Assembly (NCBI GenBank): GCA_016203305.1
Contig: JACQMY010000035.1
Location: forward strand, 574-64,573
Source of the DNA: Candidatus Woesearchaeota archaeon
GTDB taxonomy: Archaea > Nanobdellota > Nanobdellia > Woesearchaeales > ARS49
Length of the DNA: 64,000 bases
Reading direction: 5' to 3'
The notes under the pieces were generated by a model, which was not told the origin of the DNA, made no database searches, and worked only from the letters and a program-made list of their open reading frames with translations. Positions 961 to 45,232 of this stretch are shown in pieces. The stretch's first letter is position 1. Every line of letters begins with the position of its first letter. A program made the position numbers and the translations under genes.

Positions 961-1030
961 GGCTGAAGGCAGAAGGGCGAAGGATGAAGACCGCCTTCTG
1001 CCTCACTCCTTCTTCCTTCATCCTCCTTTA
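961..1030. repeat. Heptamer (NNNNAGG) array plus inverted complement, forming a hairpin, in the divergent proS / lipoprotein promoter region
   Basis: ggctgaaggcagaagggcgaaggatgaag...ccttctgcctcactccttcttccttcatcctcc. Confidence 0.6.
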
Positions 1031-1106
1031 TAAAGGTTTGCGGGTGCCGATGAGTTGGCGAGCGACCTGAGCAAAGTTTATAAAATCCGCAAAAGGTGGC
1101 CACTCG

Positions 1107-2510
1107 ATGAGAAAAACCTTGGCAGGATTGATTCTGGCTCTCGCAGGCTGTGCACAAGTGGAAGTTGCCCCAGCACTGAAACGTGAGAAAGATTTGCAGG
1201 AAGCAGTTGCAAAAGAAATGCGCAAGCACGGCCAGTGGGTTGAGAAGGTTGTGCGACAAGACTACAATATCGCGCCAGTGGGTTCTATCGTGAGCATTGC
1301 ACTGGAACCTTCAAAAGAAGAGAGCTGTGGTTTTCTCGGCCATATTGCCGCGTTCAATGACCCGCGCAGCGTACTGCTGATACCAGAAAACGTTGACACC
1401 TGGGTTTTTGATGCGATCGACCACGAACTCGGCCACGTTGTGCAGTTTCGCGTTATCGGACAGCAGGGATACGCAGGCCCGTCATGGAATGATATTGCAA
1501 CGCACTGCACAAAGAAAGTGCAAAATAAAGGGATGGAAGAGTGGAGGACGATTCTCGAGAAAGAAAAAATGATTCTTGGTTTGAGCGAGGCACTCCAAGA
1601 AGGAATAAACGAGTTTAACAGTATAGAGGATACTTTGCGAAAGAAGGTACGCAGGAACAAACAGGAGCGCGAGCAGTTAAGCGAGCACGCCAAATACGTT
1701 GATGAATCCGACCGCAAAATGCTGGAAGCCGCTCGGGCAGATGTAAATGAGAAAATCAAAGCAGTATATGACTGGCGCGACAAGATGGGCGCCTGGGCAA
1801 AGTCCCATACCACTGATCAGAGTTTGGATGCCCTCTCAACGGCAGACATCGCAGCCGTGACGTCAAGCGTAGGAAAAAGCATCAGCGAGCTGGACAGCTT
1901 GGGAAAAAAGGCAATCGAGCTGACTGAAAAGTATGGAAAGGTTATTGACCAGTTAGCAGATAAAACATACAGTGCAGCTGAAAAGGATCTTCAGGAAAAA
2001 GCCAAAACCGCAAAGAATGAAATCGAAGCAATAAGTTACCGTTCGAAGCTTGAACGACTGCAGATTTCAAGTGAAGAAGCCAAAAAAAGGCGCGCTCGAC
2101 ACGAAAGTCTCGATGAACTCGACAGAAGCAATTTGCAAGGACTATTAAGGAAATTTGTCAAAGCAATTAATTCAGGAAGGGTGAACAAGATTGGTGAACC
2201 ATCAGAGTTTTTTGCACGAATGGTCGATAGCTTGTACAGTTTGCGCTTGCAAAAAGTCGGCCGCGACCAGTTCCCATTGACAGAAGAAGATCTCAAGTTG
2301 TTTGAACAATGCACGTTCGAAGGCAAACCTATCTTTGGAACAGCCGTCCAGAAATACCGATTGGGAATGCAAATGACGGCCGATGGCATTCCTGCAGAAC
2401 ATGTGAAAAATACATTGGAATACGCGACAAGTTTTGCATATAAGGGAAAAACGTATTGCTGGTCTCCTGCGCGCGTGGCATTCAGAGGCAGTTTTCCACG
2501 AGAACGATAA
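1107..2510 (+). CDS. Putative lipoprotein with an HExxH zinc-metalloprotease motif and a long coiled-coil region
   Basis: N-terminal MRKTLAGLILALAGCAQ is a lipobox-like signal. An AIDHELGHVV motif is present, and the central third is K/E-rich and predicted coiled coil. There is a GGTGG SD-like site upstream. Confidence 0.5.
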   Translation: MRKTLAGLILALAGCAQVEVAPALKREKDLQEAVAKEMRKHGQWVEKVVRQDYNIAPVGSIVSIALEPSKEESCGFLGHIAAFNDPRSVLLIPENVDTWVFDAIDHELGHVVQFRVIGQQGYAGPSWNDIATHCTKKVQNKGMEEWRTILEKEKMILGLSEALQEGINEFNSIEDTLRKKVRRNKQEREQLSEHAKYVDESDRKMLEAARADVNEKIKAVYDWRDKMGAWAKSHTTDQSLDALSTADIAAVTSSVGKSISELDSLGKKAIELTEKYGKVIDQLADKTYSAAEKDLQEKAKTAKNEIEAISYRSKLERLQISSEEAKKRRARHESLDELDRSNLQGLLRKFVKAINSGRVNKIGEPSEFFARMVDSLYSLRLQKVGRDQFPLTEEDLKLFEQCTFEGKPIFGTAVQKYRLGMQMTADGIPAEHVKNTLEYATSFAYKGKTYCWSPARVAFRGSFPRER

Positions 2511-2511
2511 A

Positions 2512-3162
2512 TTAGACGCTTGGCTGGTTTGAGAAGAACTCCAACAACTTCTTCCTGCCAGGAACATGATGATGCTGGCTGCATCTGGCTTCATAACTCT
2601 CAGTCGAACCAACAAGAATCAAAGGACTGTCGTAAGGAGCAGGCTTGCTGTTAATCAAGCGCTGAGTGTAGTCAGCAGACCTGCCACAAATCTCGCCAGA
2701 ACGGCTCTTATACGTGCAAATCGCTCTTAAAACAGTGATTGCAGAAGCGTGCGGCATCAACTCACCAATATGACGATGACTGTTCAGAAACTTGAAAGGC
2801 TCGCCACGAAAATCGCGACTCAAACAAGAAGCCAAAATCTTAACCTTCTTACTCTTATCCTGCACGGTTTGCACACAAAAAGGAATAATCTTGTCAGAAA
2901 AAAACTGAATTTCATCAATAACGACAACATCAACAGGACAATGCTGCAACCGTTCCAACATCTCCTCAGTAGACTGAACAACATGAGCGCTAATCATCGA
3001 ACGATTATGCGAAGCAACATGCGTAGGACTGTAACGCGTATCAATAGAAGGCTTGAACACGGCAACATTCCTGCCAGCAATGTATTCCTTCCTAGCACGA
3101 CGCATCAACTCCTCAGTCTTACCCGCGTACATGCAGCCAACGATAAGTTGAAGTTCGCCCAT
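2512..3162 (-). CDS. tdk: Thymidine kinase (TK1/bacterial type)
   Basis: The P-loop GCMYAGKTEEL follows the start MGELQLIVG, and the C-terminal zinc-ribbon cysteines are present. The likely start is the internal ATG at 3162, because the upstream 36 nt are heptamer-repeat sequence. Confidence 0.8.
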   Translation of the reverse strand: MGELQLIVGCMYAGKTEELMRRARKEYIAGRNVAVFKPSIDTRYSPTHVASHNRSMISAHVVQSTEEMLERLQHCPVDVVVIDEIQFFSDKIIPFCVQTVQDKSKKVKILASCLSRDFRGEPFKFLNSHRHIGELMPHASAITVLRAICTYKSRSGEICGRSADYTQRLINSKPAPYDSPLILVGSTESYEARCSQHHHVPGRKKLLEFFSNQPSV

Positions 3163-3165
3163 TTT

Positions 3166-3230
3166 TAGGTTGAAGGCGGAAGGACGAAGATCTTCCACCC
3201 TCGCCCTTCAACCTTCAGCCTACCTATAAG
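3166..3230. repeat. Heptamer (NNNNAGG) array followed by its inverted complement, giving a hairpin
   Basis: ggttgaaggcggaaggacgaag...cttccaccctcgcccttcaaccttcagcc. Confidence 0.6.
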
Positions 3231-3292
3231 CTTTCGTTATCACAAGACAGTAAGACAGCAATCTTATAAATAACGGAAAGCAACAGCACAAC

Positions 3293-3763
3293 ATGCGCAT
3301 AGTCCACCACGCAAGCCACCACATACTAATACACCTGGGACTATTTTCCGGATTTGCTCTCCTGATACCAGTAATCACAAAAGCATTCGAGCAAAACGCA
3401 AAGCCCTGGATACTCGAACCAAGCATATTCTTCGGAGGAGTAATGCTTGTCATCATATCGGCGTTCCTGCTGTACCGCGTCAAGGAAAACATGCCAGACG
3501 TGCTACAGAGCCTAGGAGCCATGATTTTTCTTCCAGGAGCAATCAACGTCATATCAGGAGTAATAAACATACACGACTTTCTCACGACAAAGACAAGCCT
3601 CTCAGGAATGGCAGTAGTAAAACCAATAGCACAATTCTACGTCGAACACAGCGTTCCAAGCGTGCTAAGCGTCGCAGCAGTGTATCTGTTCATCGGAGGC
3701 ATGCTATACTGGATCGGGTATAAGATGCAACGAGTAAAGGATAAGTTTTCATTTAACAACTGA
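3293..3763 (+). CDS. Hypothetical polytopic membrane protein
   Basis: A 156-aa ORF with four or more hydrophobic segments and no recognisable motif. Confidence 0.35.
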   Translation: MRIVHHASHHILIHLGLFSGFALLIPVITKAFEQNAKPWILEPSIFFGGVMLVIISAFLLYRVKENMPDVLQSLGAMIFLPGAINVISGVINIHDFLTTKTSLSGMAVVKPIAQFYVEHSVPSVLSVAAVYLFIGGMLYWIGYKMQRVKDKFSFNN

Positions 3764-8200: not shown

Positions 8201-8469
8201 AGAGTCTTTGTTGCGCCGGTTGGAGCGGAAACCAGCACGTTATTCCTGCAGTGAATCTCGTAAACGCCAAACAATTGCGGCAATGAGAAGTTTGTAAAGC
8301 GTGAGAAGAACCACTTTTTGATCGTTGGATTTAGAATGCCCTCTATCTCTTTTGCCTCATTGGGCTTCTCCTTCCTCGACAATAAGTTTTTATCCATATG
8401 GAAAATAATTAATAGTGCTTCACTAACAACAAAAACCAAAATGACACTATAAAAATCTAACGCGAACAA
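5266..8469 (-). CDS. lhr: Lhr-type large ATP-dependent helicase (DEAD/DEAH superfamily 2)
   Basis: Motif I APTGATKTL, DEIH box, SAT and HRxGRxGR-like motifs, ~1,067 aa with the Lhr C-terminal extension. Confidence 0.85.
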   Translation of the reverse strand: MFALDFYSVILVFVVSEALLIIFHMDKNLLSRKEKPNEAKEIEGILNPTIKKWFFSRFTNFSLPQLFGVYEIHCRNNVLVSAPTGATKTLTGFLSVLNELVDSAEKGKLQDKVYCVYISPLKALSNDIMKNLKEPLEQIERIAGTPLGIRVGVRTGDTTQGEKAKMLAKPPHILITTPESLAILLASVKFREHLREVEWCIVDEIHALAENKRGVHLSLSLERLHILSPGMCRVGLSATVSPLDEIAYYLVGVCRPCKIIDIQFLKNLDFKVISPVENLVETSHGEMHQKMYELIDDLIQQHRTTLVFTNTRSATERVVDHLKTRFPKKYVGNIGAHHGSMSKQMRHDIEGKLRNGELKAVVCSTSLELGIDIGYIDLVICLGSPKSVARFLQRAGRSGHKLHETVKARIIVMDRDDLVECAVLLKSAVEKKIDLVHIPTNCLDVLAQQIIGMALEQVWEERELFNAVRKSYCYKDLKLGDFNNILSYLAGEFASLEDRNIYAKIWRDGGKLGKRGKMGRVIYMTNLGTIPDESFITVKVGTETVGMLDEGFVERLKPGDVFVLGGETYLFKFTRGMVAQVSTSVNRPPTVPHWVSEMLPLSFDLASEIGRFRRLMLERFVSQESKKDVLEFINKHLYVDDHAASAIYEYFKEQFDYCKRIPNDRMILVEYCSDGRDEKIVFHTLFGRRVNDCLSRAVAFALSKTTHKDVELGMNDGGFYINGGKSLKPVNALKLLKPDKIDMVMDIAIEKSEVFKRRFRHCATRSFMILRNYMGRQKRVGRQQVSSMILLSALKRIDNDFSILKEARRECLEDLMDIDNTRKVLEGVADGTIKVVELESTVPSPFALNLALMGYMDVLRIEDKYEFLKRMHEQILAKIGGKEAKAVSGAAFVERAHSVKNEFKEQLKKEAWNLARVPRYAKMELVRIIDGERSNIEPSFLKGVEQYRKEIEENWPDELKKFLFTVLAELKTGEFSYEDLWREQDEKKEQDKDELKFKLIEQFNKAAKKAKLDPQMRYDVYHMIDGEKEGFRKETLAWLKDLFSKSVPKYWDDDIAKFLQQKWKELL

Positions 8470-8475
8470 GTCCAG

Positions 8476-8640
8476 TGGGTATTGGGTGTTAGGAAGTAGG
8501 ACGCAGGGTGAAGGACGAAGGTATTAGGATGAAGGTTGTAGGACGTAGGATGAAGGGTGAAGGCGATTGGTTGTTGGCTATTAGCCCGTAGTAAGTGGTT
8601 TGTAGTTCGTAGTTGGTAGCCTACCTACTACTTACTACAT
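8476..8640. repeat. Array of ~22 degenerate heptamers (NNNNAGG/NNNGTAG), ending in a GGCTATTAGCC motif and a short CTAC-rich inverted segment
   Basis: gggtatt gggtgtt aggaagt aggacgc agggtga aggacga aggtatt aggatga aggttgt agg... then cctacctactacttactac. Confidence 0.7.
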
Positions 8641-8692
8641 GTCGGAAATTTTCAATTTCCGATCACGCTCGGAATTGCGTTACAATTCCGAC
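8639..8692 (+). mobile_element. ~54-bp twin-hairpin MITE-like element with 9-bp TIRs (GTCGGAATT...AATTCCGAC), copy A
   Basis: It contains two adjacent perfect hairpins (tcggaaatt/aatttccga and tcggaattg/caattccga). It is 96% identical to the inverted copy at 36037-36088. A cognate flank without the insert occurs at ~11040. Confidence 0.55.
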
Positions 8693-8762
8693 GCACTACA
8701 AACTTTTAACAGGGACAAAACTTATAAGCAAGCACTCAATCGCAGCAAATAGTGAGTGAAGA

Positions 8763-9071
8763 ATGGCGTACAAAGCAACGTACTTCAATGCAACAGCCGA
8801 TCCTCGTTGGTATTCTGTCCGAGAAGAACGCGAAAACGACACTGTTACAGTCACCGTCACAGGTGATTGGAAGAGAACTCCCGAACCAAAAGCAGCAGAA
8901 ATAGGACAACTCTGCCGCGAACTCATCGACCTCAAAAGAAGAATCAAAGAAAATGGAGAAAAAGCAAAAATCTATGTTGACATTGCCAATTTTCCCAATG
9001 ATGAAACGGCCGAACCACTTTACAAAACAATTCTTACCGCGGCAAGCGCACGCCTGCCTACACAAAAGTGA
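8763..9071 (+). CDS. Hypothetical protein (102 aa)
   Basis: The ORF has an SD-like sequence and its stop overlaps the GTG start of the next ORF. Confidence 0.4.
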   Translation: MAYKATYFNATADPRWYSVREERENDTVTVTVTGDWKRTPEPKAAEIGQLCRELIDLKRRIKENGEKAKIYVDIANFPNDETAEPLYKTILTAASARLPTQK

Positions 9072-9790
9072 AACGACACCATTCTGAACCACTCAAAGGA
9101 AAGTTGCTAGTCATAACAAATGTAGAAGCACCACCAACCTACGTAAGCGATCAAGAACTAGACCCTGTCAGTAACGCCAAAAAAACCGTAACAAGAAGAG
9201 TAATTCCCGCACACGTTGAAGAACACCCTATCGTCTACGCAAGCATAAACCCATACGACCTTGTAGAATTTGAACGCGCACAACCAAACCGCACAGAACA
9301 GTGGCGGGATGCAAGCGACGAATTCGAACGTCAAGACCGCAAAAATCCAGACACCGCACCAGTATTCCTAAAACTTCTCGCAGAAAGACCAAAAGCACGA
9401 TATGACGTGACCATTATAACACCGCATACTAACAGACTCGCCTACAGAGTCATGCTCGACGAGGTCAGAAACTATTTCAAACAGCACGCACAACAACGAA
9501 CGCCTGAAAAAGTTGCTCAAGATTTTGTCGTCATCCACAGCAGGCTCACACGCTTAGAACAAGCAGGGCTGATCGCAACCCTTGAAAGATTGCTTGAAGA
9601 TCAAAAAATGCCACCTTACTTTGACGCGCTACAAAGAATAGTACAACACCCTGGCGCAACTCCTCAAGTAATAGCAAATTATGTTCAACTAATGGGCCTG
9701 GCAGCACAAGGAATTGATATTTACGAGCCAAAAAGAAACATCTCGCGACTCGTGCTCAACGGCTCAAACCAGCGATATCACGAAAACTAA
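9068..9790 (+). CDS. Hypothetical protein (240 aa), translationally coupled to the upstream ORF
   Basis: The GTGA start overlaps the upstream stop. No recognisable motif. Confidence 0.4.
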   Translation: MKRHHSEPLKGKLLVITNVEAPPTYVSDQELDPVSNAKKTVTRRVIPAHVEEHPIVYASINPYDLVEFERAQPNRTEQWRDASDEFERQDRKNPDTAPVFLKLLAERPKARYDVTIITPHTNRLAYRVMLDEVRNYFKQHAQQRTPEKVAQDFVVIHSRLTRLEQAGLIATLERLLEDQKMPPYFDALQRIVQHPGATPQVIANYVQLMGLAAQGIDIYEPKRNISRLVLNGSNQRYHEN

Positions 9791-10321
9791 TCCTGCGAGT
9801 GCAATTGAAACAACATAAACCGCCTTGTTCCACTGCCAAACAGCAGCACCATCAAAAGGAGGAAAAGGAATCAAGTTAAAAACTCCCAACAACGCGTTAA
9901 TGTAATAACCATACAATGCTACATCAGTTGGCAAGAAGCCAGCTGAAAAGAAAAACAACACTGCCAACAACACGTTCATCATCGGGCCAGCAAGAGCAAT
10001 CCAACCATGCTGACGATGAGACGCGCCACGAATGAAAACACCACCAGGAGCTGCCAGAATGAAACCTGTAAAGCTTAACAAAACACCGATAAGCAACGCC
10101 TGATCATTAGCTCTGAACTCAGCCCAGCATTGGTAACGCTGAGCGACAAACTTGTGTGCCAACTCGTGCAACAAAAACCCAACACCCGCAGTAATCAAAG
10201 CAACAACAATCGCCCACGGCAAACGCGCACCAATACCAACCTTAGCGATAGCAAACATCAAAGAAACAAGCACCCAAGCCTTAACGATCTCCTTAATTTC
10301 AAACCTTGAAAAACTTAACAT
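9764..10321 (-). CDS. Site-2 protease family (M50) intramembrane zinc metalloprotease, short form
   Basis: HELAHKFVA (HExxH) lies in a TM helix, with the downstream NLIPFPPFDGAAV (LxPxxxxDG) motif. The protein is polytopic. Confidence 0.7.
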   Translation of the reverse strand: MLSFSRFEIKEIVKAWVLVSLMFAIAKVGIGARLPWAIVVALITAGVGFLLHELAHKFVAQRYQCWAEFRANDQALLIGVLLSFTGFILAAPGGVFIRGASHRQHGWIALAGPMMNVLLAVLFFFSAGFLPTDVALYGYYINALLGVFNLIPFPPFDGAAVWQWNKAVYVVSIALAGLVFVISLV

Positions 10322-10839
10322 TGTGCCCTCACCGCCGCATCTTCCAAAAAGCTAACGAACAACGCAGTATCATTCCGCCACAAAGCAGCCCGCGCGCCAT
10401 TCAACGAGCTAACAGCATCACTACAACGGCTCCGCTCAACAGTCATCACTACAAGACGAGTATCCAAACCAGCCAGAGAATCAAACAATTTCCTGCTCTC
10501 ACCCTTAGTACGATCAGGACAAGAAGACCAGGAAACCTGATCAACAAGATTAAACAAAGAACGCTCACTCACAAAAAACAACTCAGGCAACACCAAACCA
10601 CTTGGCTCATAATAACGATCGTCAGCACCAAACCTTAACAATTGGTCAATACGACGCAACAACACTCTACACTCGGCAGAAACCCAACCAGAAAACGGAG
10701 CCCTGGCAAGCTGCAAACGCTCCAAACGCAACACGGCAACATCATTAACCACCAGCCCAGTCTGTTCTGATTTGAAATCCTGCAACAAGAACAACACTGG
10801 CAATAACAACAACAGGAATATGACTAACCCCTTTAGCAT
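10315..10839 (-). CDS. Hypothetical signal-anchored/secreted protein upstream-overlapping the S2P gene
   Basis: N-terminal MLKGLVIFLLLLLPVLFLL, with a 7-nt overlap to the S2P start. Confidence 0.4.
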   Translation of the reverse strand: MLKGLVIFLLLLLPVLFLLQDFKSEQTGLVVNDVAVLRLERLQLARAPFSGWVSAECRVLLRRIDQLLRFGADDRYYEPSGLVLPELFFVSERSLFNLVDQVSWSSCPDRTKGESRKLFDSLAGLDTRLVVMTVERSRCSDAVSSLNGARAALWRNDTALFVSFLEDAAVRAQC

Positions 10840-10867
10840 TACGGATAGAACGAGAAGGGAATATAAA

Positions 10868-11100
10868 AAGGGTGCAGGTTGTAGGGTGTAGGACGAAGGC
10901 GGAAGGATGTAGGACGTATTATGAAGAGCGAAGGCATTAGGTTGTAGGACGTAGGTTGTAGGTATTAGGACGAAGGATGTAGGTTGTAGGACGAAGGCGG
11001 AAGGGCGGAGATAGTTTGTAGTTGGTAGTGTGTGGTTTGTAGACTACTTACTACCTACTACGCACTACAAACTCGTTCTGTAAGACGAAGGCGAAGGTTA
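10868..11100. repeat. Long (~33 unit) heptamer array, with a short inverted CTAC segment that matches the flanks of the MITE copy A (candidate empty site)
   Basis: gggtgcaggttgtagggtgtaggacgaaggcggaagg... gtttgtagactacttactacctactacgcactacaaac. Confidence 0.7.
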
Positions 11101-11165: not shown

Positions 11166-12014
11166 ATGATCAAAAAAGAAGAGGGAGTTGTTCTTATGGT
11201 CATCATGGTCGTCGGCTTTTTTGCATTATTCTCAGTATGGATACTCCACCAAAACAACCCAGTTGTATACGCCATCTCGCCCACACCTATCCAAACGATT
11301 TCCTCATTTTACTCAGTGCCAGAATTTCCTGTTGATCTGTCCGGCAAGGACGATTGCGATTTAGTCGGTTATGAAAACGAAATTGAGAACTACATCAAAA
11401 CAATGAGACGACACGCAGCATACCATGAACAACAAACACAAGAAATCAGACAAGAAGCGTTCGCAACAAAAGCGGCAATTAATGCAGGACTGGAAAATCC
11501 AACATACAGCGACGCGTACGGACTGTTGCTATGCACGTCAGCACCTTTAGCACCAATGAGTTCATCTTCATACTACTCGAGCAGTTTCTCAGATGACCAG
11601 TGCGCCACTGCACTTGAAAACATGCAAAAAGCATACCAATATTATCTTGATGCAAAACAAGACTCAAAAGACCAATTAGCAGAGCTCAAAGAATTATTAG
11701 AAGACGTAAGCGATGGACTCGATTATCCGGAAAATTGCTATGAAGATATGCTCGATGCATACTATACGGGCGTCCATAGCGCTGCCACAGACGCAGAGAA
11801 AGCATACGAAGACATGCAAAAATACATTGAAGAAGCAATAGAAGAATGCGAAGACTTATGCGAAGAGGAAACGAGCTCATACGGTATTCCTATTGATCGC
11901 TCACCGTTTATCCAGCCAAGACCCGGAGTATTACGTCCAATTGTTCGCCAGCCCACACGACCTCAATTACCAAGACAAGGGCCACGCCAAGGGCCGATTC
12001 GGCAAAGAAAATAG
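11166..12014 (+). CDS. Hypothetical N-terminally membrane-anchored acidic protein with a basic Pro/Gln/Arg-rich C-terminus
   Basis: A TM segment at residues ~8-28, an acidic middle (EE/DD-rich), and a ...RPQLPRQGPRQGPIRQRK tail. Confidence 0.4.
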   Translation: MIKKEEGVVLMVIMVVGFFALFSVWILHQNNPVVYAISPTPIQTISSFYSVPEFPVDLSGKDDCDLVGYENEIENYIKTMRRHAAYHEQQTQEIRQEAFATKAAINAGLENPTYSDAYGLLLCTSAPLAPMSSSSYYSSSFSDDQCATALENMQKAYQYYLDAKQDSKDQLAELKELLEDVSDGLDYPENCYEDMLDAYYTGVHSAATDAEKAYEDMQKYIEEAIEECEDLCEEETSSYGIPIDRSPFIQPRPGVLRPIVRQPTRPQLPRQGPRQGPIRQRK

Positions 12015-12108
12015 AAGGACGAAGGCGGAAGGAAGTAGGTTGTAGGAATTAGGACGAAGGATGACGGTATTAGGTTGTAGGATGAAGACTGGTGGCTATT
12101 AGCCAGTG
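12014..12108. repeat. Heptamer array ending in GGCTATTAGCC, between convergent genes
   Basis: aggacgaaggcggaaggaagtaggttgtaggaattaggacgaagg...tggctattagccagtg. Confidence 0.65.
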
Positions 12109-12177: not shown

Positions 12178-12909
12178 CTAATCCAGTGACTTCCATAGAT
12201 GCTCAAAGTATTTTCGGTAATTGTCTGCAAGCATCTTATGCTTGATTACAAATGCCATTGGTTTCTCCAGCCATAATACGTTAGCGACATTGTCGCCGTA
12301 GATGTAGATTACGTTGAGCCCGCTCAGTAATTTTGGCAGGATTTTATATTCGTAGTATTTTGATTTTGTGATGGGTTTGTTTCTTGCTTCATGCACGAGG
12401 AGCAGTTTCCATTTGCAACGTCGTTTTTCTCTTGTCTTGTTGTATTGGGGCCAAAAGTAGGGCAGTCTGTTTTCTACGTCGCCTGTTGCACCAATAAATA
12501 ATACTTCTTTGTGTTCCAGGCAGTCTTTGAGTATTGTTTTGATTCCCTCGGTTCCACGATAAATCTCAGCCTCGATTTCGGAGGTTTGCGACCTGAACAT
12601 GCTATTCAGTTCGGGCAATAATTTCTGGGTTGCGCATTTTAGCTCATCAATTTTTGCTTTCTTCTCATCCAAGTATGTTAGTACATTATCAGGGTTCTTG
12701 GCTTGAAAGAATTTTACTTTATTTTCTATAACAAACGTTACCAGTCCTTTCTCTATGAGCTTGTTTAACGCGTCGTAAAGATTCCTTCTGTAAATTCCTG
12801 TTTCTTCTATAATGCGTCTTGCTGAGGTAGCACCGACACTTAAGAGCGTCAGATATGCTTTAATCTCTGTTTCTGTCAAACCTATCTTTTTCAGTATTTG
12901 TGCATCCAT
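12178..12909 (-). CDS. TrmB-family transcriptional regulator
   Basis: N-terminal wHTH LTETEIKAYLTLLSVGATSARRIIEETGIYRRNLYDALNKLIEKGLV, typical of TrmB, with a ~240-aa two-domain layout. Confidence 0.65.
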   Translation of the reverse strand: MDAQILKKIGLTETEIKAYLTLLSVGATSARRIIEETGIYRRNLYDALNKLIEKGLVTFVIENKVKFFQAKNPDNVLTYLDEKKAKIDELKCATQKLLPELNSMFRSQTSEIEAEIYRGTEGIKTILKDCLEHKEVLFIGATGDVENRLPYFWPQYNKTREKRRCKWKLLLVHEARNKPITKSKYYEYKILPKLLSGLNVIYIYGDNVANVLWLEKPMAFVIKHKMLADNYRKYFEHLWKSLD

Positions 12910-12997: not shown

Positions 12998-13396
12998 ATG
13001 GAGTATATGTCAGGTTTAAGTACGGCAGTGTTTGAAGTCGAAGCTGCTTCTCCGCAATTGGAGGAGTTTATGCGTTCTAGCGGTGCTTCCTCATCGTCAG
13101 GAAGATTAGAGGAACGTATCGTGACTACGTACCGTGTGCCGATTCTTATACCCGTGGACCGTGGATATTTAGTTGGCGAAGTTGGTTCTTATCCAATCGA
13201 CCGTTTTCTGGATTGTCCGGTATGTGATAGATGGAAACTCCGAGGTCTCAGCCAGGCAGACTTACTGCAACAAATTTTTGATGGCGCAGGACCCATCAAA
13301 CCGATAAAATTGAGAGATATCGTCGCAAAAGTAGAAAATGAATCAGGGCCACATAAAATGTATGTTAGTTATATGTCTGGATCATTATTGGGCTGA
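12998..13396 (+). CDS. Hypothetical protein (132 aa)
   Basis: The ORF is divergent from the trmB-like gene, and a TATA-like tttaaa lies in the shared upstream region. Confidence 0.35.
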   Translation: MEYMSGLSTAVFEVEAASPQLEEFMRSSGASSSSGRLEERIVTTYRVPILIPVDRGYLVGEVGSYPIDRFLDCPVCDRWKLRGLSQADLLQQIFDGAGPIKPIKLRDIVAKVENESGPHKMYVSYMSGSLLG

Positions 13397-13518: not shown

Positions 13519-13785
13519 CTACAACCCGAACGCTTCTGTGAATTCTTTGACTTTTGCGAAGTCTTGCAAGAACTTTCTGCCTTCATCGGTGAGGGCGAAC
13601 ATCATCTTTCCTTTATGGTCTGTTTCAACGATAAGTTTGCGCTGTTTGAGCTCCTCAAGATAGATCTTCATCCGCTGGTGGGAAAGGTTTGACTTGTACA
13701 ACAAATGGGTCGGAAGAATCCTGCCGCCCTTCTCTTCAATTGCCTTCAACATGTCATAGACAATGTCGATCTTTGCACGCTTCAT
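13519..13785 (-). CDS. Small winged-helix DNA-binding protein
   Basis: An 88-aa wHTH-like sequence (IVYDMLKAIEEKGGRILPTHLLYKSNLSHQRMKIYLEELKQRKLI). Its 4-nt overlap with the upstream membrane protein gene suggests coupling. Confidence 0.5.
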   Translation of the reverse strand: MKRAKIDIVYDMLKAIEEKGGRILPTHLLYKSNLSHQRMKIYLEELKQRKLIVETDHKGKMMFALTDEGRKFLQDFAKVKEFTEAFGL

Positions 13786-14528: not shown

Positions 14529-14591
14529 CTTTGCTTTTAAGCTTTATGGATGCAAAATCCAAATTAGTTCTTCACAAGGGATATTAAAACG

Positions 14592-14730: not shown

Positions 14731-14746
14731 TAAAACGAGGTGCAAC

Positions 14747-22872: not shown

Positions 22873-22886
22873 ACCCGAGGTGCACA

Positions 22887-24813: not shown

Positions 24814-24850
24814 TTAGTGTGTAGTTTGTAGAGCGAATAAAGAACGAAAA

Positions 24851-32300: not shown

Positions 32301-33284
32301 TAACGAGCTGAATACTGTCGCGCTATTCCTTGCCACTATATAGTCAACATCCGTCTGCACAGGCGTCAAAGTTGAACCGTTGCCCTGCGCGTGATTTGTG
32401 ATCTTCGTGTATGAAAATCCCAACTCCAGACCAACACGCGCGCTTGTCGTCGTCTGCAGGTCAGCAAGAATGCTATAAAACTGGGAAGCAGGAGAAGTAA
32501 CAGTAAAAGGCGATTGCGTGGACTGAGTTTCCTGAGACGCACAAGTATCATCAACAACACTCGCACTCACGCGCGCAGTGAAAGTACCATTGGCTTGAGG
32601 GATGAAAGCAAACGAAACAGGAACTGTTGAATCTGCAACAATCGCGGTATTTGTAGCAGCGGTAAAGTTCTGCTGCTGGCTGTGAATGACCGTGCTGCCA
32701 TTCAAAACTTCAAACAAAACAGAAGTGTCGGCAGCCCAGAACTCCTGAACAAATTGAGGAGGAAGATACTGCACGTCCGTCCTCGTGATGCGGAACGCAC
32801 TCGATGTCTCAGCATCCAACTGAGCGCTAGTCTGGAACGCCAACGGCTTGTTCAGCTCAACGTTATTCGTAAAGCTCAACGCGCCAACACTCGCACGACA
32901 AGTATTAGGATACTTTGTAAAAGTGTTTGACTCTGAAGTTTGCGCAACACCACCAATGCCACGCGTGTTCCAAGTATGCTTACCAACCAAAGGACGATAA
33001 CCCTTTGCAAGGAAATACTCAGCATACCCGAACGCTGTTGCCAAACTATCAGGATAACGGAAAATCACATTACCATCAGTTGCCTGTGGTCCTTTGATAA
33101 TCTGACCAGAGAAAGCACCAACGCTGGCACAATTCGCGTCATTACAGTTCACAACAGTAGAGTTCAGCGAGACATTTATTCCAGGCAAGTCAGCATACGA
33201 AAAACGATACGTCACATCAACAGCAGCATACGCTACCTGAACTGCCAACAATGCTACCAATGCAAGTAACAATTTCTTCATCAT
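26364..33284 (-). CDS. Giant secreted surface protein (2,306 aa): signal peptide, ~4.5 Ig-like tandem repeats of ~230 aa, a beta-solenoid segment, a PKD domain, a poly-Gly linker and a C-terminal TM anchor. It is extremely rich in N-x-S/T sequons.
   Basis: MMKKLLLALVALLAVQVAYA signal. Repeated FRRxVTDD...GNHSYRWFA...LNG.AGN.TV modules. WNFGDGTNS PKD motif. A GGGGGGGGGGGGGSGGGAG run. PEKPVEKPVEKVAEKP then IAIVVIIVLLGLAAYAIM at the C-terminus. Confidence 0.8.
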   Translation of the reverse strand: MMKKLLLALVALLAVQVAYAAVDVTYRFSYADLPGINVSLNSTVVNCNDANCASVGAFSGQIIKGPQATDGNVIFRYPDSLATAFGYAEYFLAKGYRPLVGKHTWNTRGIGGVAQTSESNTFTKYPNTCRASVGALSFTNNVELNKPLAFQTSAQLDAETSSAFRITRTDVQYLPPQFVQEFWAADTSVLFEVLNGSTVIHSQQQNFTAATNTAIVADSTVPVSFAFIPQANGTFTARVSASVVDDTCASQETQSTQSPFTVTSPASQFYSILADLQTTTSARVGLELGFSYTKITNHAQGNGSTLTPVQTDVDYIVARNSATVFSSLGNTLIKNPDPVNATLQQFSFVPTLAGVHNVTVRARANSALPTTLPEITAEVSMLVNVIGTQSGNVTFNVLNAQTGAKINGSNVTLAGIGSNRTDENGSARFSNVPEGNYLYVVNGTNTSSGNFTTVTDSVDIFGDATVSVLLQPGNVSTGNTPPTINLPQNLTILANSVTRFNVSPFIDDAQDPDGSLTLNFSGNTSIGIRVDFGQDVQFTPNTGFVGTDNVVFTVRDTQNATAFDTIAIIVSASASAPVFSALPQINITEDGSAVRVVNLHQFTTDVDTPLAQLTYGILNVSGTVGFTVSIEQNQFVTVVPVADDFGIGTATLIVTDPQGLSSTANITINVTPVNDAPVVVSVPTIPPFNESTTFTVNLSQVFFDVDGDPLGYRASSVANVTLTFNNSNNSMLIIPQFNVNGVRKVNVTAEDPFGKNVTAEFTIVLNGVDDVPFFTVVIPNVTTFEEQNNSIDLTPFENDPEDGPGANNNNLSWKFQLANQSNLTLVTVLNTSLVNMVLDVPNDRLAFVPIVNATGSLNLTLFLFDRTGKNVSQNITFSVTNLNDAPAFVNFTSQIGEAGREFFFDVNATDSDPTNDILTFNDSASLFNISNLTGVINFTPAFNGVFVIPLLVCDNVGACTSGNFTLNISDITPPAPGGQITPLNGSVYAPNASYMWGINWTDNGNITNVTFELNGQNLTNVTQNGSFYNITVLDLPAGNHSFRWFARDGANNLNSTNVSVLSILRAQSDLSLLLNGSAANITVSPRTILNISANLTNTSGLVKLFNNGTLILSQNNPASINQTFIIPGNYTINASFDGNQNYSAANRSFTVFVVDTLPPSFGNETVVPVNSSVFGSLANFRRNITDDHAVAAVRLEFNGTNLTALRAGASDTFEVNISNASAGNHSYRWFATDASNNTNISTASNYTILQAQSALTLTLNGVAGNITVSKSSTVQLVASLANTTGLVNISVAGVFVVSGSAPLSTNQTFNFAGVFNVTTEFAGSQNFAPANLTRFVSVIDTQAPVFGGELIVPANNSFFPQAQYVFRRNVTDDVSVSNVSLEFNGANVTTQRVGLTNEFEANVSTLAAGNYSYKWFARDTSSNLNVTAASVYSVRQAFSNLSLTLNGTAGNVTVVQGSTIPLFANLTNTSGTVSIFKNGALLASGAAPLTRNELFGVQGVFNITAVFAGSQNFTNSSVTRFVVVPDSTPPVFGSELLSPASPANFSPVYTFRRDVTDNLAVANMTLELDGLNRSALRVGVSNTFEVNLTGLTVGNHSYRWFANDTSGNVNLTANATYTINPGIGAITLTINGVAASTSVQVNDAATIVANVTNPFGGFVNLFINGSLAQNGTSPLTNVTNFTSLGTFNVTAVFPGDVNATGASATLFVTVTPVITQTSIVPASGTLLNLSSFIMTVTTNGVTSCRWSTQDVAQGSMSNGFSGNGTTHTANITNLTLGSNNVFVACNNQSNVTNSDLVYVAQNILDGSTLTGVNSMNNSVFTSGSINVSTVLNANMTTTTSSNSSLINVNGSNSTLRNVSGLDSRFTNSLLTNCVVRNSTVKGITATNCVFTDSFVDPSNLTGSIIQGSSSIVESNVTFSNVTNSTIVNSNINNSVIVGSVIVNSQFSNAVVTSANITNNVISSGTIAVGGITYNATASGPANLSQVIPLPPVASFTQTATAVQPNAVITFTSASTDPNIPGPLNDSLSFFWNFGDGTNSTSSSVNKSYNTTGTFPVTLTVTDRFNFTSVGSSSVTVAVPPPPSVGGGGGGGGGGGGGSGGGAGVRIALTEVPVAREVFVGQPMSFTIGGVVLPSSIFMRKVDLGRQTTEWALNAQFIPVAKGESGLFDLSKDGVADLDLKVLSFGRNSATVEFKLANGQTVANVPFLPTFNIQPRPEKPVEKPVEKVAEKPVVEPTEVTVPVTAVVKEGLFTKLGRLLSNAKKSIAAKFDVAPDSQAVKIAIVVIIVLLGLAAYAIMSMFEPLSFD
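27600..30350 (-). repeat. In-frame tandem ~690-bp coding repeats (~4.5 copies) within the giant surface protein gene
   Basis: Recurrent protein blocks (FRRNxTDD / GNHSYRWFAxD / LNGxAGNxTV / FAGSQNF). Coordinates are approximate. Confidence 0.5.
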
Positions 33285-34933
33285 CAGTTGCCCGTACCTG
33301 GCTGAGTATCTCCACCACCGTCAATTGGAGGCGGCGTGCTTGGGCCAGGAGAGGGACTTGGAGACGGACTCGGGGACGGGCTTGGAGACGGACTCGGAGA
33401 CGGACTGGGCGACGGGCTTGGAGAAGGGTCCGGAGACGGACTGGGCGACGGATCAGGAGATGGATTTGGAGATGGGCTCGGAGACGGACTTGGAGATGGA
33501 GGAGCTGCAGAACTGTCACGATCTTTCTTGCCAGAAGTCAGCGCATAAGCAGTTGCTCCTCCTGCCGCGACTGTTTCCATCCACGACCATGCTTCCATGA
33601 CGCGTGGCCGCAGATTCTCCCCGATAAAATTTGTCCCAGAATTCTTTGCGCCACGTGTGCGACTGGCACCCTCCTGGAGTACATCGGCGAGTTGTTCAAC
33701 ATCGCTGGAGCCATCTGGTGAATAGACATTGCGCGTCCAGGAATTACGACCATGACCGCTCGCATAGTGGAAGATTAGATTTATTGCAGGCACCGCGTAA
33801 ATTGCAAGATTGGGATGCAAGAGGCTCGGATCAACACAGTGCTGATCGAATGTTTCACGGATTCTCCTAACCACATGTGCTTGAAGAGCAAGCGTATCAG
33901 GGCCGTTCAAACCACGCTTTCGTGCGATTTCAAGCGGAATGCGCAACGCATAAACAGCTCGATTCTGAAATGCAAGGTGCCTGTTTTCATACGTGTCCTC
34001 TGCAACAAGAGTTTGCACATCAAGCATCAATTCCCGCATGAAGTTTTCTAGCGTCAGCCCCCTGCCACGTGCAATACCCTGCTCGTACAGTACGCTATTA
34101 TTCTCAAACAAATCTTGCAGCGTTTCACCTTTATATTTATCCCACACCGCGTCAGGAGTAATAGTTGCCGCATTATCCTCCAATGCAAGAGTAAGCTGTA
34201 TCACTCTCCGGTAGGCATCGTCCATAGGTTGAACTCTGAATTCAAGTGCGTTCGCATGTGCTACACCAGAGAGAACAGCGCGGAGGAACTCCAGAGATGC
34301 CCTATTATACTCTGCAATGGACTTATGCTCCACATTGTTTCCTGAAATCGCGGCATCACGTGCTGCCTTATTCGCAGGATTGATTGTGCCCAAAAGTTTA
34401 GTAAGTTCAGTTTCGCACGCTGCCAACTGCTCCGCACTCAATGGTTCAATATCACCAACACTGTCAAGTGTACTGTTCGCGTCAACGTTCGTCATCAAAT
34501 ATCTCTGAACAAGATTTTGTTCGAACAGCCGTGCAAGCAGTGTGTTCTGGCTGTGAAGTTCTGCAACTAACGGAGGTAATGCGGCTGCTGATTGAGTCGC
34601 ATAAGGTCTCGCGGCGAGGAAACGCGTGCTAACAAACTCATCGATCGTTCCATTATATTCGTACCTCGTTGCCTGTGCATTAACTGCACGAACCGGAACG
34701 TCCATATCTGGCTTATATCCCACAGGCGTTGCGCAACCGCTTCCTGACAAGGAAACAAGACCTACTAGTCCGAGTATGCTGCCTCCCGCGGTAAATCTGC
34801 GATTTGCAGGCAGCTTTTCAGTTTTATCTGAAACATCACGATCGTAGAAACGACCCACTAAATACCCAAAAAGTCCTCTGCGAGAAGATTGTTCCGGTGA
34901 GTATACCATTTGCCCCCAAGACGCGAAAAACAC
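33284..34933 (-). CDS. Putative Tat-exported lipoprotein with a C-terminal (PS)n linker, translationally coupled to the giant surface protein gene
   Basis: NRRFTAGGSILGLVGLVSLSGSGCA is a twin-arginine motif with a lipobox Cys. The C-terminus is SPSPSPSPSPNPSPDPSPSPSPDPSPSP... and the stop overlaps the next start at 33284. Confidence 0.55.
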   Translation of the reverse strand: MFFASWGQMVYSPEQSSRRGLFGYLVGRFYDRDVSDKTEKLPANRRFTAGGSILGLVGLVSLSGSGCATPVGYKPDMDVPVRAVNAQATRYEYNGTIDEFVSTRFLAARPYATQSAAALPPLVAELHSQNTLLARLFEQNLVQRYLMTNVDANSTLDSVGDIEPLSAEQLAACETELTKLLGTINPANKAARDAAISGNNVEHKSIAEYNRASLEFLRAVLSGVAHANALEFRVQPMDDAYRRVIQLTLALEDNAATITPDAVWDKYKGETLQDLFENNSVLYEQGIARGRGLTLENFMRELMLDVQTLVAEDTYENRHLAFQNRAVYALRIPLEIARKRGLNGPDTLALQAHVVRRIRETFDQHCVDPSLLHPNLAIYAVPAINLIFHYASGHGRNSWTRNVYSPDGSSDVEQLADVLQEGASRTRGAKNSGTNFIGENLRPRVMEAWSWMETVAAGGATAYALTSGKKDRDSSAAPPSPSPSPSPSPNPSPDPSPSPSPDPSPSPSPSPSPSPSPSPSPSPSPSPSPGPSTPPPIDGGGDTQPGTGN

Positions 34934-34985
34934 CAGCCATTATATAAAGGTTTCACTTTTTTAGCATTTGACAATAGTAACAAAC

Positions 34986-35165
34986 TAGGATGAAGGATGT
35001 AGGGCGAAGGATGAAGGTATTAGGATGAAGGCGGAAGGAAGAAGGGATTAGGCATTGGGTATTAGGACGAAGGGCGAAGGTGGAAGGAAGAAGACGAGGA
35101 TGAAGGTGGAAGGGTGAAGGAAGAAGGTTGGAGGACGAAGGCTTTTGGCAATTAGCTATTAGAAA
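34986..35165. repeat. Longest G-rich heptamer array in the window (~25 units), ending in GGCAATTAGCTATTAG
   Basis: ggatgaaggatgtagggcgaaggatgaaggtattaggatgaaggcggaaggaagaagggattaggcattgggtattaggacgaagggcgaaggtggaaggaagaag... Confidence 0.7.
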
Positions 35166-35972: not shown

Positions 35973-36036
35973 GTGAGAAGCGGGAAGAGGAGGGCTTTTT
36001 AAAGGTTGCGTTTTTGGTTTGCAGTTGGTAGTTCAT

Positions 36037-36088
36037 CGGAATTGTAATGCAATTCCGAGGTGATCGGAAATTGAAAATTTCCGACATG
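36037..36088 (-). mobile_element. Twin-hairpin MITE-like element, copy B (inverted relative to copy A)
   Basis: The reverse complement differs from 8639-8692 by one indel and one mismatch. Confidence 0.55.
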
Positions 36089-36090
36089 TG

Positions 36091-36140
36091 GTTTGTAGAC
36101 TAGGATATAGGTTGTAGGACGTAGGGTGAAGACGGAAGAA
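36091..36140. repeat. Short heptamer array adjacent to MITE copy B
   Basis: gtggtttgtagactaggatataggttgtaggacgtagggtgaagacggaag. Confidence 0.6.
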
Positions 36141-43817: not shown

Positions 43818-43905
43818 AATAAAGCACTAAACAGAACCAGTATATAAAAATTACTTTTTTGTATACTGGACTCCTGCGCCAGAACAAATTCACTTGACAG
43901 TAATT

Positions 43906-44400
43906 ATGAAGTTACTTAAGCACGACAGACAGCCATCATACGGGGGAATTGGTATGATGAAGGTCGTATTAACAATGCTAGTATTAGCCATAATAGCAGG
44001 GCCAACAGTTGAAACACGCCTAGCATACAGCACAGAACCATTCACGAGCACACAACAAATACCATTTGACGCCATAATCGTCTACAACGACCACTTAACA
44101 ATCAACTATCCAGGACTACGCTATGCAAAAGTAACAAGCAACAGCATGGCCCCAATCATAACAGACACATCAACAGCACTAGAACGCATACCAACATCAC
44201 CAGACGAAATACACACAGGAGACATAATTTCATTCTACGAGCCAAGCGTTGACGGAGTAGTACTACATTTAGTAACTGAAGTTCTCACTAAAGACGGCAC
44301 AACACATTACAAAACCAAAGGAGTAGCAAACCCAGAAGAAGACCCCTGGGAAGTGCCCTACGAGAACGTGAAAGGAATATTGGTTGGAGTAATTAAGTAG
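43906..44400 (+). CDS. Signal peptidase I (S26/Sec11-like)
   Basis: An N-terminal TM segment, then SNSMAP (the catalytic Ser box, SxSMxP) and a GDII box. The start was chosen at the ATG at 43906. Confidence 0.5.
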   Translation: MKLLKHDRQPSYGGIGMMKVVLTMLVLAIIAGPTVETRLAYSTEPFTSTQQIPFDAIIVYNDHLTINYPGLRYAKVTSNSMAPIITDTSTALERIPTSPDEIHTGDIISFYEPSVDGVVLHLVTEVLTKDGTTHYKTKGVANPEEDPWEVPYENVKGILVGVIK

Positions 44401-44530
44401 GACGAAGGTAGTAGGACGAAGGGTGAAGGTAGAAGAAACGCAATCTTCACCCTTCCGCCTTATACCTTCAACCTCAATTAGTTGTTGGCTGTTAGCTAAT
44501 GACTATTAGTACTAATGGCTAACAGCGGCT
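44398..44530. repeat. Heptamer hairpin plus a GGCTGTTAGC...GCTAACAGC palindrome between convergent genes
   Basis: gtaggacgaaggtagtaggacgaagggtgaaggtagaag...cttcacccttccgccttataccttcaacc then ttggctgttagctaatgactattagtactaatggctaacagcggc. Confidence 0.7.
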
Positions 44531-45203
44531 AAATTACCCTAACCGTCGCCTGATAAACTTTCTCAGTATAGAATTGCTTCCGGTTCTCAGGCTTGCACTC
44601 AGGAGGAGACTGTCCCTCATCCTTATACACGCAAACATTAAACACATAGTCGCCCTTTTGCGTTGGAATACCCTGACCAGCATTCACGTCAGCACGAATC
44701 AACAAAGGCCTAACCTCCTGCTGATTCTTCTTCAAAGTAAAAGGAGGAACACTCTTGAAGTTGCCCAACCACCTCTGCTCAACAAACTGAGCGTTCTTCT
44801 GAGAGATAACAGAGCCATCAGGAGCATAAGCCTCATCAAAACTCAAAATAGCACCGAAACGCGCCTGTGCACCAATATTACGAACACCAAGTGCAAATTT
44901 TGCCATCGCGCCACGCTTTGCGTCTACAACAGTAAAAGGAATAACAACCAACTGATTGCCAGACTTCAAAGTCTGCAAAATCTGCTCCTGAGTCTGGCGG
45001 TCAATCTCCTGCTCCAACTCCTGAGCGCTGCCAAACCATTTGAACAACAAGTTAACAGACAATATGAAAACTAGCACGCCAATAATTAGCGCGACCACCA
45101 TTCCGATGCTGAACTCAATACCCTTTTTGGAAGGTAGAAGGAAGAAGGAAGAAGGAAGAAGACCTGCTCCATTCAAATCAGTCACTATTTTTTTGCTCTT
45201 CAT
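44529..45203 (-). CDS. Putative class-III-signal (archaeal type IV pilin-like) protein. The start is uncertain.
   Basis: ...KKG|IEFSIGMVVALIIGVLVFILSV resembles an archaeal prepilin cleavage site plus a hydrophobic helix. The 5' 90 nt of the ORF are heptamer-repeat sequence, so the true start may be the internal Met. Confidence 0.35.
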   Translation of the reverse strand: MKSKKIVTDLNGAGLLPSSFFLLPSKKGIEFSIGMVVALIIGVLVFILSVNLLFKWFGSAQELEQEIDRQTQEQILQTLKSGNQLVVIPFTVVDAKRGAMAKFALGVRNIGAQARFGAILSFDEAYAPDGSVISQKNAQFVEQRWLGNFKSVPPFTLKKNQQEVRPLLIRADVNAGQGIPTQKGDYVFNVCVYKDEGQSPPECKPENRKQFYTEKVYQATVRVI

Positions 45204-45232
45204 CCTACAACCTTCGTCCTATTCCGGCCTTA
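45128..45232. repeat. Heptamer array (gaagg aagaagg x4) and a downstream inverted C-rich segment, overlapping the 5' end of the pilin-like ORF
   Basis: ggaaggtagaaggaagaaggaagaaggaagaag ... cttcatcctacaaccttcgtcctattcc. Confidence 0.6.

Follow-up and report, generated by a model that had tools for sequence, protein, structure and literature searches.

Degenerate heptanucleotide arrays in the intergenic DNA of a Woesearchaeota archaeon

We found that twelve intergenic loci (named A to L, from 961 to 45224) in a 64-kb stretch of contig JACQMY010000035.1 from a Candidatus Woesearchaeota archaeon hold in-phase heptamers of the patterns NNGWAGG (class 1) and NNNGTAG (class 2). The whole stretch of 64,000 nucleotides is called the window here, and coordinates refer to it unless a contig is named. 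An earlier note on this DNA had claimed heptamer arrays at a minimum of 12 intergenic loci. This claim is upheld: 12 loci were found, and the AGG patterns are absent from shuffled sequences; the observation is confirmed as real and far beyond chance. The interpretation attached to it is partly supported. We tentatively favor the reading that these arrays are a lineage-specific, degenerate archaeal variant of the short tandemly repeated repetitive (STRR) or long simple sequence repeat (LSSR) heptanucleotide arrays and serve as a track of binding sites for a putative factor.

Extent, unit grammar and lineage of the arrays

The pattern of five AGG-N4 repeats has 36 matches in the window and none in 100 dinucleotide-preserving shuffles. 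The stricter pattern of four AGGNNGW repeats has 10 matches, again with none in shuffles, and the class-2 NNNGTAG units have 20 matches where 0.19 are expected. Twelve plus-strand NNNNAGG runs of 4–15 uninterrupted units are spread over ten loci (8487-8563, 10865-10913, 10928-11004, 12012-12081, 14588-14657, 22800-22834, 23635-23718, 34983-35087, 35093-35141, 36098-36125, 44395-44429 and 45128-45155). Two short hairpin loci with 3-unit runs (961-1030 and 3163-3226) complete the twelve. Minus-strand runs are found only at 994-1024, 14685-14708 and 44451-44474, and each of them is the second arm of a hairpin. The class-2 units at 8564-8619 stay in the 7-nt register of the AGG units. Tandem Repeats Finder (TRF) gave periods of 7 nt and multiples of 7. 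The arrays are too degenerate to be picked up by a simple detector of period-7 self-similarity, which detects only a class-2 run in coding sequence.

The arrays amount to about 1.1 kb of the 3.75 kb of non-coding DNA (about 30%) and are restricted to it, save for class-2 units in a giant open reading frame (ORF) at 46854-46873 and 47289-47341. They occupy 12 of the 20 intergenic gaps of at least 60 nt, and not every sizeable intergenic region as had been stated. Array lengths form a continuum between 3 and 23 units and show no excess of four-unit arrays. At about 23 units, the longest array (34983-35141, with one indel break) is shorter than the maximum of 33 units reported earlier. The 7-nt phasing described as strict is mostly so, with phase breaks at 35088-35096 and at about 23719. 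The reported occurrence of arrays in all gene contexts is borne out: loci A, D, F and H lie in divergent regions, loci B, C, G, I, J and L in tandem minus-strand regions, and loci E and K in convergent regions.

The 129 units comprise 47 distinct heptamers, with ACGAAGG, TATTAGG, TTGTAGG and ATGAAGG as the dominant words. Positions 1 and 2 are nearly free (0.09–0.16 bits), G3 and W4 (A/T) carry 0.85 and 0.67 bits, and A5, G6 and G7 are almost invariant at 1.87–1.93 bits, a value that is partly built in because detection used AGG periodicity. The long unbroken runs and the few broken internal units (about 8 of about 125) still indicate a large difference in rate between core and spacer. G occupies unit positions 3, 6 and 7 in 73–99% of cases versus 13.6% at neutral 4-fold sites of the same strand, and the base content of the unpaired arrays is 42.6% for G and 5.8% for C, whereas the coding GC skew is -0.17. 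The G-rich core is thus far from neutral composition, indicating that the motif persists against mutational drift. The arrays also have a direction. A closing unit NNGAAGA stands at 15 of 20 array ends, and a strict count finds AGA on the 3′ side of 9 of 18 arrays and on the 5′ side of 2 of 18 (4–16% in public arrays). At loci C, E, I and K, in-phase NNNTTGG or NNATTAG units come after the AGG units. The 12-mer TGGCTATTAGCC, an inverted repeat of the form GGCTA-T-TAGCC, occurs exactly at 8575-8586 and 12093-12104 on the 3′ side of arrays, with 2-mismatch versions at 35146 and 44486, and may be the target of a dimeric DNA-binding protein.

Slippage or dispersal would leave copies, and no copy signature was seen. 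Identical neighboring units are depleted (1 observed versus 4.6 expected, P = 0.04), and unit similarity at lags of 1–6 units shows no excess over random pairs or shuffled arrays. Different loci have 8 two-unit strings in common versus 7.5 expected, and no three-unit string versus 0.26 expected. Higher-order repeats (14–35 nt) given by TRF were rejected, as the unit-level tests give them no support.

The window has a G+C content of 45.9%, and its Lhr protein is identical to MBI4146680.1 (Candidatus Woesearchaeota archaeon). Pfam scans of the ORFs show an archaeal, chromosomal gene content, including genes for Lhr helicase, TrmB, PIN, thymidine kinase, GrpE-DnaK-DnaJ, L15e, family B DNA polymerase (PolB), TIM and thioredoxin. 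The next-closest relatives have 79% Lhr identity. Five loci of four relatives (about 110 kb, mostly syntenic) carry no arrays, and therefore the arrays are specific to this Woesearchaeota lineage. Intergenic DNA makes up only 3.2–3.5% in these relatives. Three Logan contigs (L001, L121 and L216, from independent assemblies of the three runs SRR12113383-85) are 100% identical to the window and probably sample one population. They end at or beside hairpin loci (ends at 1028, 8620 and 23231); therefore, the arrays fragment short-read assemblies of this lineage.

Hairpins, strand orientation and arrays elsewhere

Folding of the palindromic versions had been proposed as a further check, and all five hairpins cited by the earlier note, the class-1 hairpins of loci A, B, F, G and K, fold as single-stranded DNA better than shuffles (z -2.3 to -5.6). 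The class-2 palindromes of loci C and D reach z -6.9 and -2.9. The arm pairing energy is -0.98 kcal/mol per nt for cognate arms versus -1.08 for arms swapped between loci. The hairpins result from two convergent motif arrays and are neither fold-back copies nor co-adapted stems; what is conserved is the motif and not the sequence. Archaeal transcription termination relies on oligo-T, and the hairpin-locus sequences contain no T-run after the stems. Hairpins A and F (961-1030 and 14588-14733) sit between divergent gene starts, the neighbors of B and G are tandem minus-strand genes, and those of K converge. Thus, B, G and K have the 3′ location of a terminator or intercistronic hairpin, whereas A, F and the seven one-armed arrays do not. 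The stems are mismatched, and swapped arms pair equally well, in contrast to a stem selected for pairing and followed by a T/U run. Given that divergent starts flank A and F and that the Lhr array stands upstream of a promoter module conserved in relatives, ordinary terminators cannot explain the set, which agrees with the view expressed earlier.

The constant order of the G-rich copy before the C-rich copy had been read as pointing to a chromosome-polarity or replication-linked signal, or to a protein-binding array. However, a palindrome of G arm, loop and C arm is identical on both strands, so the five class-1 hairpins and two class-2 palindromes are uninformative on polarity. Of 52 adjacent inverted AGG-heptamer pairs in public data (unrelated bacteria, metagenomes, phages), 49 start with the G arm, with ratios of 8:0 in genomes, 8:0 in metagenomes and 33:3 in viral contigs, indicating that this order belongs to this kind of repeat and not to this chromosome. 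The strand-informative cases are seven unpaired class-1 arrays, all G-rich on the plus strand (binomial p = 0.016), and a few class-2 runs. Six of the seven lie just upstream of a minus-strand gene start, with the gene immediately to the left, and plus-plus tandem gaps large enough to serve as a comparison are absent from the window. Replication polarity therefore cannot be told apart from promoter-linked orientation in the window. Of the proposed replication or polarity signal, the uniform orientation of the unpaired arrays stands and its attribution is confounded; a link to replication is possible.

The plus strand of the window has a very strong asymmetry at third codon positions (AT skew typically about +0.5 to +0.7, GC skew about -0.3 to -0.6) in genes of both strands, and its 4-fold sites contain 47% A, 25% C, 15% T and 14% G. 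This skew is independent of gene orientation, with four genes excepted, and keeps a single sign across the window, as in a replication-type signature. The unpaired arrays are thus G-rich against a strong C/A-rich skew of their strand. The four genes with reversed or absent third-position skew are 12178-12909 (TrmB), 17406-17990 (HEPN-like), 1107-2510 and 12998-13396, which suggests recent inversion or acquisition. The asymmetry recurs in two relatives (L122 and L124), in which the A/C-rich strand carries the GrpE-DnaK-DnaJ...Lhr block, so the block is inverted relative to the skew in the present organism. We rejected a general rule by which the C-rich strand would carry the G-rich arrays, since other genomes lean the opposite way, with a slight excess of G-rich heptamer arrays on the G-rich strand (46 versus 27). 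Heptamer arrays in Xanthomonas have no strand preference (PMC4692102).

Many bacteria, above all filamentous cyanobacteria, Planctomycetota, Bacteroidota and Verrucomicrobiota, have arrays matching NNGWAGG, and so do phages; no archaeon is among the 119 genome matches listed for this pattern. Nearly all of the bacterial arrays are homogeneous, that is, one heptamer iterated, and since the search pattern forces the GWAGG core, these matches say nothing on core conservation. A mixed-unit pattern found 91 metagenome contigs (32–68% G+C) with degenerate NNNTAGG arrays, among which there is no close kin of the host, the best being a 38% protein match on contig L210. Viral contigs hold many convergent heptamer pairs. 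Five phage contigs of 56–68% G+C (L325, L323, L235, L275 and L316) have degenerate AGG-heptamer hairpins in consecutive intergenic gaps; those of L325 are at 8865-9000, 9660-9742, 10246-10313 and 11312-11392 of that contig. The L325 hairpins lie about 10 nt past the stop codons of consecutive co-oriented genes (Mu-like head gpT, the major head protein, tail tube and neighbors), which is where terminators or intercistronic hairpins are expected.

Individual loci and neighboring sequences

Among the divergent regions, locus A (961-1030) consists of convergent class-1 arrays with the G arm at 961-990 and the C arm at 993-1026 (folding energy as DNA -13.6 kcal/mol, z -2.3), and it separates the start of gene 3-959(-) from gene 1107-2510(+). 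Locus D combines a plus-strand class-1 direct array of 20 units (10865-11004), 2 of which are broken (ACGTATT and ATGAAGA), with a class-2 palindrome at 11011-11075; the array abuts the TATA box (10860-10869) of gene 10315-10839(-). A long G arm (14588-14677) and a shorter C arm (14679-14733) form locus F (14588-14733; z -5.6 for 14586-14734), which lies between the start of gene 13782-14528(-) and a small gene, 14738-14866(+). Locus H (23635-23727, plus strand) is a class-1 direct array of 12–13 units. In the convergent regions, locus E (12012-12108, plus strand) starts at the stop codon of gene 11166-12014(+) and has 10 direct class-1 units and a closing ATGAAGA, followed by TGGCTATTAGCC at 12093-12104. 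Locus K (44395-44520) has convergent arrays at 44395-44478 (z -5.5 for 44392-44478) and then in-phase NNNTTAG/NNNTTGG units.

In the tandem regions, loci B and G are both convergent arrays centered on GAAGATCTTC and are 82% identical. Locus B (3163-3226; z -4.2 for 3160-3228) is bounded by the stop of gene 3220-3570(-) on one side and by the thymidine kinase ATG at 3162(-) on the other, and locus G (22796-22876; z -2.4) lies upstream of grpE (22156-22686, minus strand) and is identical on Logan contig L001. The class-1 direct array of locus C (8471-8587, plus strand) has 2 lead-in NNNNTGG units, 11 NNNNAGG units and then the in-phase units CGATTGG, TTGTTGG and CTATTAG, within which TGGCTATTAGCC is found at 8575-8586. 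The class-2 palindrome of this locus (8588-8706) runs from GTAGTNN to NNACTAC units, and its right arm is split by a 52-nt double-hairpin element at 8639-8692. Locus I (34983-35165, plus strand), the longest class-1 array, has 15 + 7 units separated by the phase break at 35088-35096, followed in phase by CTTTTGG, CAATTAG and CTATTAG. At locus J (36010-36139, plus strand; z -5.7), between the L15e start (35972, minus strand) and the PolB stop (36151, minus strand), an inverted copy of the 52-nt element (36034-36086) has class-2 units on either side, and the 3′ part has 4 class-1 units and the closing units GTGAAGA and CGGAAGA. Locus L (45128-45224, plus strand) has a class-1 array at 45128-45161 and a weak, distant C arm at 45197-45224, the fold of which is not significant (z -1.0). 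A short plus-strand class-2 run, TTAGTGTGTAGTTTGTAG, is found between two plus-strand genes at 24814-24831. The 52-nt element consists of two small hairpins (TCGGAAATT...AATTTCCGA and TCGGAATTG...CAATTCCGA). Its copies at 8639-8692 (plus strand) and 36034-36086 (inverted) are about 90% identical, and both are surrounded by class-2 heptamers, to which they are oriented alike; the element looks like a small insertion element.

The array of locus C begins immediately upstream of a promoter module for Lhr, CACTGGAC-(about 13 nt)-TTTTTATAG, which is conserved in four relatives. The module contains a TATA sequence and is found at 8398-8470 of the window and at 9915-10000 in L122, 9880-10000 in L124 and 9885-10000 in L219; its upstream box may be a regulator site. 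Because the Lhr array lies beyond this module and the locus D array abuts a TATA box, at least these two arrays are outside the mRNA of the adjacent gene.

The class-2 heptamers at 46854-46873 and 47289-47341 (plus strand) belong to the 3′ portion of the giant ORF on the minus strand, where they keep a 21-nt register and encode PQTTNY-type repeats, suggesting that heptamer arrays may have entered coding sequence in multiples of three units. This ORF is longer than 5790 aa and runs off the window, and the PQTTNY-type repeats stand just before a predicted C-terminal membrane helix. Other coding repeats include a 12-nt unit, GGAGACGGACTT, of 12.8 copies (33348-33500) in the 3′ part of gene 33284-34933(-), and repeats of about 555 nt at 28473-30178 inside a 2306-aa ORF, 26364-33284(-). 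The longer repeats probably represent repeated surface-protein domains. Genes were called from third-position phase skew and Pfam matches, which correctly chose L15e; a codon-usage gene caller trained on minus-strand genes was discarded, as the strand skew made it reject every plus-strand gene. The Pfam match of the thymidine kinase begins at residue 14 of a long ORF, and its ATG was taken at 3162(-). Rfam (gathering thresholds) and ARAGORN gave no match anywhere in the window.

Possible roles and known repeat systems

In the reading that we favor, each array would be a series of recognition sites of equal standing. A sequence-specific nucleic-acid-binding factor, either repeated or oligomeric, would read it in steps of one 7-nt unit and contact the GWAGG core of the G-rich strand. 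A weak hairpin formed with an inverted second array would be a consequence of the arrangement and not a selected feature, and with the G arm lying 5′, the factor could bind it before the complementary arm emerges. The protein-binding array, one of the options raised in the earlier note, fits the conservation pattern of AGG every 7 nt, a free spacer and dissimilar neighbors, although the binding itself is putative. We infer the existence and identity of such a factor and the nature of its target, DNA or RNA. The location of the Lhr array outside the promoter-to-gene unit favors DNA, or a divergent or read-through transcript, over an mRNA leader. Several points weigh against this reading. The Pfam scans of the window ORFs show no obviously linked candidate for the binding protein, and the near-invariance of AGG is partly circular. 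The unit words are not independent draws; a few heptamers dominate, which could reflect few ancestral units. The absence of arrays from the four relatives (79% Lhr identity) would be expected of a recent selfish or neutral burst. We know of no established function for the bacterial STRR/LSSR arrays after decades of study (see also PMC4692102).

A strong rival, possible if somewhat doubtful, is that the arrays are a non-functional by-product, that is, heptamer minisatellites produced by polymerase slippage and fold-back synthesis in dispensable spacer. AGG would then be kept by molecular drive, as only units keeping the 3′ microhomology misalign and propagate, and the orientation bias would arise from replication-strand-dependent expansion or deletion. 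This would account for lineage-specific arrays with none in the approximately 110 kb of the relatives and for their confinement to dispensable spacer, either ahead of the Lhr promoter or immediately behind stop codons; the small dominant vocabulary is compatible with few founders, and the very strong replication-type asymmetry could bias repeat dynamics. Heptamers are also the commonest long simple sequence repeats in prokaryotes, with slippage proposed as their origin, according to the summary of Mrazek 2007 within PMC4679880 and to PMC4692102. On the other hand, slippage predicts identical neighbors, which are depleted here, and similarity at lags 1–6, which is not seen. Loci have no multi-unit strings in common beyond chance, the hairpin arms are not mutual copies, the G-rich positions are far from neutral composition, and the closing NNGAAGA is not predicted. 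Action at the RNA level, which we consider unlikely, would make the convergent loci intercistronic or 3′ hairpins (terminators, attenuators or mRNA stabilizers) and the direct arrays leader or trailer elements; a protein on the G arm might block hairpin formation in the manner of TRAP or HutP. Three of the five hairpins (B, G and K) are where a terminator or intercistronic hairpin could act, the phage hairpins follow stop codons closely, the HutP target UAG-N4 has the same 7-nt spacing, and the G-arm-first order would suit either a logic that works during transcription or a 3′ arm that is pyrimidine/U-rich whichever way transcription runs. However, hairpins A and F are flanked by divergent gene starts, the position of the Lhr array upstream of a TATA-containing module puts it outside that mRNA, seven arrays have no complementary arm, and the stems are weak and mismatched, with arms that are not co-adapted, no T-run and no Rfam match.

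We regard a replication-polar signal, which gives the idea of the earlier note a specific form, as quite improbable. It would consist of CCT-N4 tracks on the G/T-rich (minus) strand that mark a lagging-strand template exposed as single strand, for example as priming sites or loading sites for a single-strand-binding protein, and its orientation would flip at the origin and terminus. Primases recognize template trinucleotides, and the plus strand is the G-rich one in all seven unpaired class-1 arrays and in the class-2 runs that have no partner arm, regardless of how the flanking genes are oriented, against a very strong skew that is independent of gene orientation. Yet only seven loci are informative (p = 0.016), of which six stand immediately upstream of the start of a minus-strand gene, an alternative, promoter-linked reason for their orientation, and nothing on polarity can be read from the palindromic loci. 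Arrays are missing from relatives that have the same skew, other genomes show the slight G-rich-strand excess, and Xanthomonas shows no preference (PMC4692102). The arrays are very unlikely to be mobile elements resembling repetitive extragenic palindromes (REPs), bacterial interspersed mosaic elements (BIMEs) or miniature inverted-repeat transposable elements, spread with strand-specific insertion by an HUH/RAYT, IS200/IS605-type single-strand transposase. REPs carry a conserved GTAG, and IS200/IS605 insertions have a replication-strand bias. In line with such elements, locus C has the composite order of class-1 array, TGGCTATTAGCC and class-2 GTAG palindrome, seen in part at E, I and K, and the 52-nt element occurs twice in class-2 units with about 90% identity and the same relative orientation. 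However, beyond this element and the 12-mer the loci share only the motif, array lengths are continuous from 3 to 23 units, and the Pfam scans of the window ORFs show no transposase or RAYT.

The degenerate archaeal arrays pull apart features that go together in the homogeneous arrays of bacteria. They retain the 7-nt spacing and the GWAGG core but have lost the features that slippage would keep (unit identity, neighbor similarity and arm complementarity), which makes the binding-track model directly testable. The G-arm-first order in 49 of 52 inverted pairs is a cross-kingdom rule that any model must explain. In addition, this Woesearchaeota clade has an unusually strong asymmetry independent of gene orientation, and the orientation of repeats there could serve as a readout of replication direction.

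Heptamer arrays, the commonest long simple repeats of prokaryotes, have been without an accepted function since their description in cyanobacteria, where the STRR heptanucleotide arrays are said to have been reported by Mazel in 1990. The arrays described here resemble the STRR/LSSR arrays in their 7-nt head-to-tail units, with runs of up to 15 uninterrupted units, in their many dispersed loci (12 in 46 kb), and in their intergenic enrichment near gene starts and stops. Occasional inverted pairs able to form stem-loops are another common feature (PMC4692102). Arrays of this family include GGGAATC and GGGGA(C/T)T in Xanthomonas and Nostoc (PMC4692102) and TAACTGA in Beggiatoaceae (PMC4679880), and heptamer repeats near Nostoc promoters alter reporter expression, for which the authors propose a binding partner (bioRxiv 10.1101/2022.06.06.494920). 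The earlier remark that this is not a described repeat family therefore needs qualification: intergenic heptanucleotide arrays, including inverted pairs, have been described (PMC4692102, PMC4679880, and Mrazek 2007 as cited in them), and the degenerate archaeal form was not found described. Unlike the bacterial arrays, in most of which a single heptamer is iterated, those of the window have 47 distinct heptamers among 129 units, one identical neighbor pair and no similarity at lags 1–6. The G-quadruplex reading proposed for GGGNATC-type repeats (PMC4692102) is disfavored from sequence alone, as the units here carry GG with only occasional GGG, instead of at least 3 G per unit, and have no four-unit peak. 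Shine-Dalgarno mimicry was likewise considered from sequence only and is disfavored, with anti-Shine-Dalgarno matches limited to AGGA or GGTGA.

Other systems share parts of this grammar. TRAP and HutP bind RNA targets with GAG/UAG triplets and free spacers of 2–3 nt or 4 nt, and UAG-N4 of HutP gives a 7-nt spacing. Similarly, the arrays have an invariant triplet (AGG, 1.9 bits per position) at fixed spacing with free spacers (0.1 bit at positions 1 and 2). However, the number of TRAP or HutP triplets is fixed by the oligomer (11, or 2 × 3) within one leader RNA that has a terminator or antiterminator, whereas 3–23 units are found here at a dozen loci per 46 kb, with the Lhr array outside the mRNA. 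The ribbon-helix-helix protein omega of pSM19035 binds contiguous 7-bp WATCACW heptads, direct and inverted, in promoter-containing intergenic DNA. The arrays share the contiguous 7-bp units, both orientations and this location, but omega heptads are near-identical and form a few operator or centromere sites on a plasmid with the gene for the binding protein nearby, while the present units are chromosomal, dispersed and degenerate in the spacer, with no linked gene seen in the window. The likeness to REP/BIME elements lies in intergenic location, hairpin capability, mosaic sub-motifs and the GTAG tetranucleotide; REP copies share sequence, whereas these loci have only the motif in common and no shared palindrome. 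Polar motifs such as KOPS, Chi and the archaeal ASPS follow replication direction, so that their orientation flips at origin and terminus, and they are short single words spread over coding and non-coding DNA alike, unlike these tandem arrays, which are only intergenic. In comparison with the bacterial heptamer arrays and the literature that we found, the features that appear new are the DPANN archaeal host, the degenerate conservation of the motif only, the closing unit NNGAAGA, and the uniform orientation of the unpaired arrays against a strong skew.

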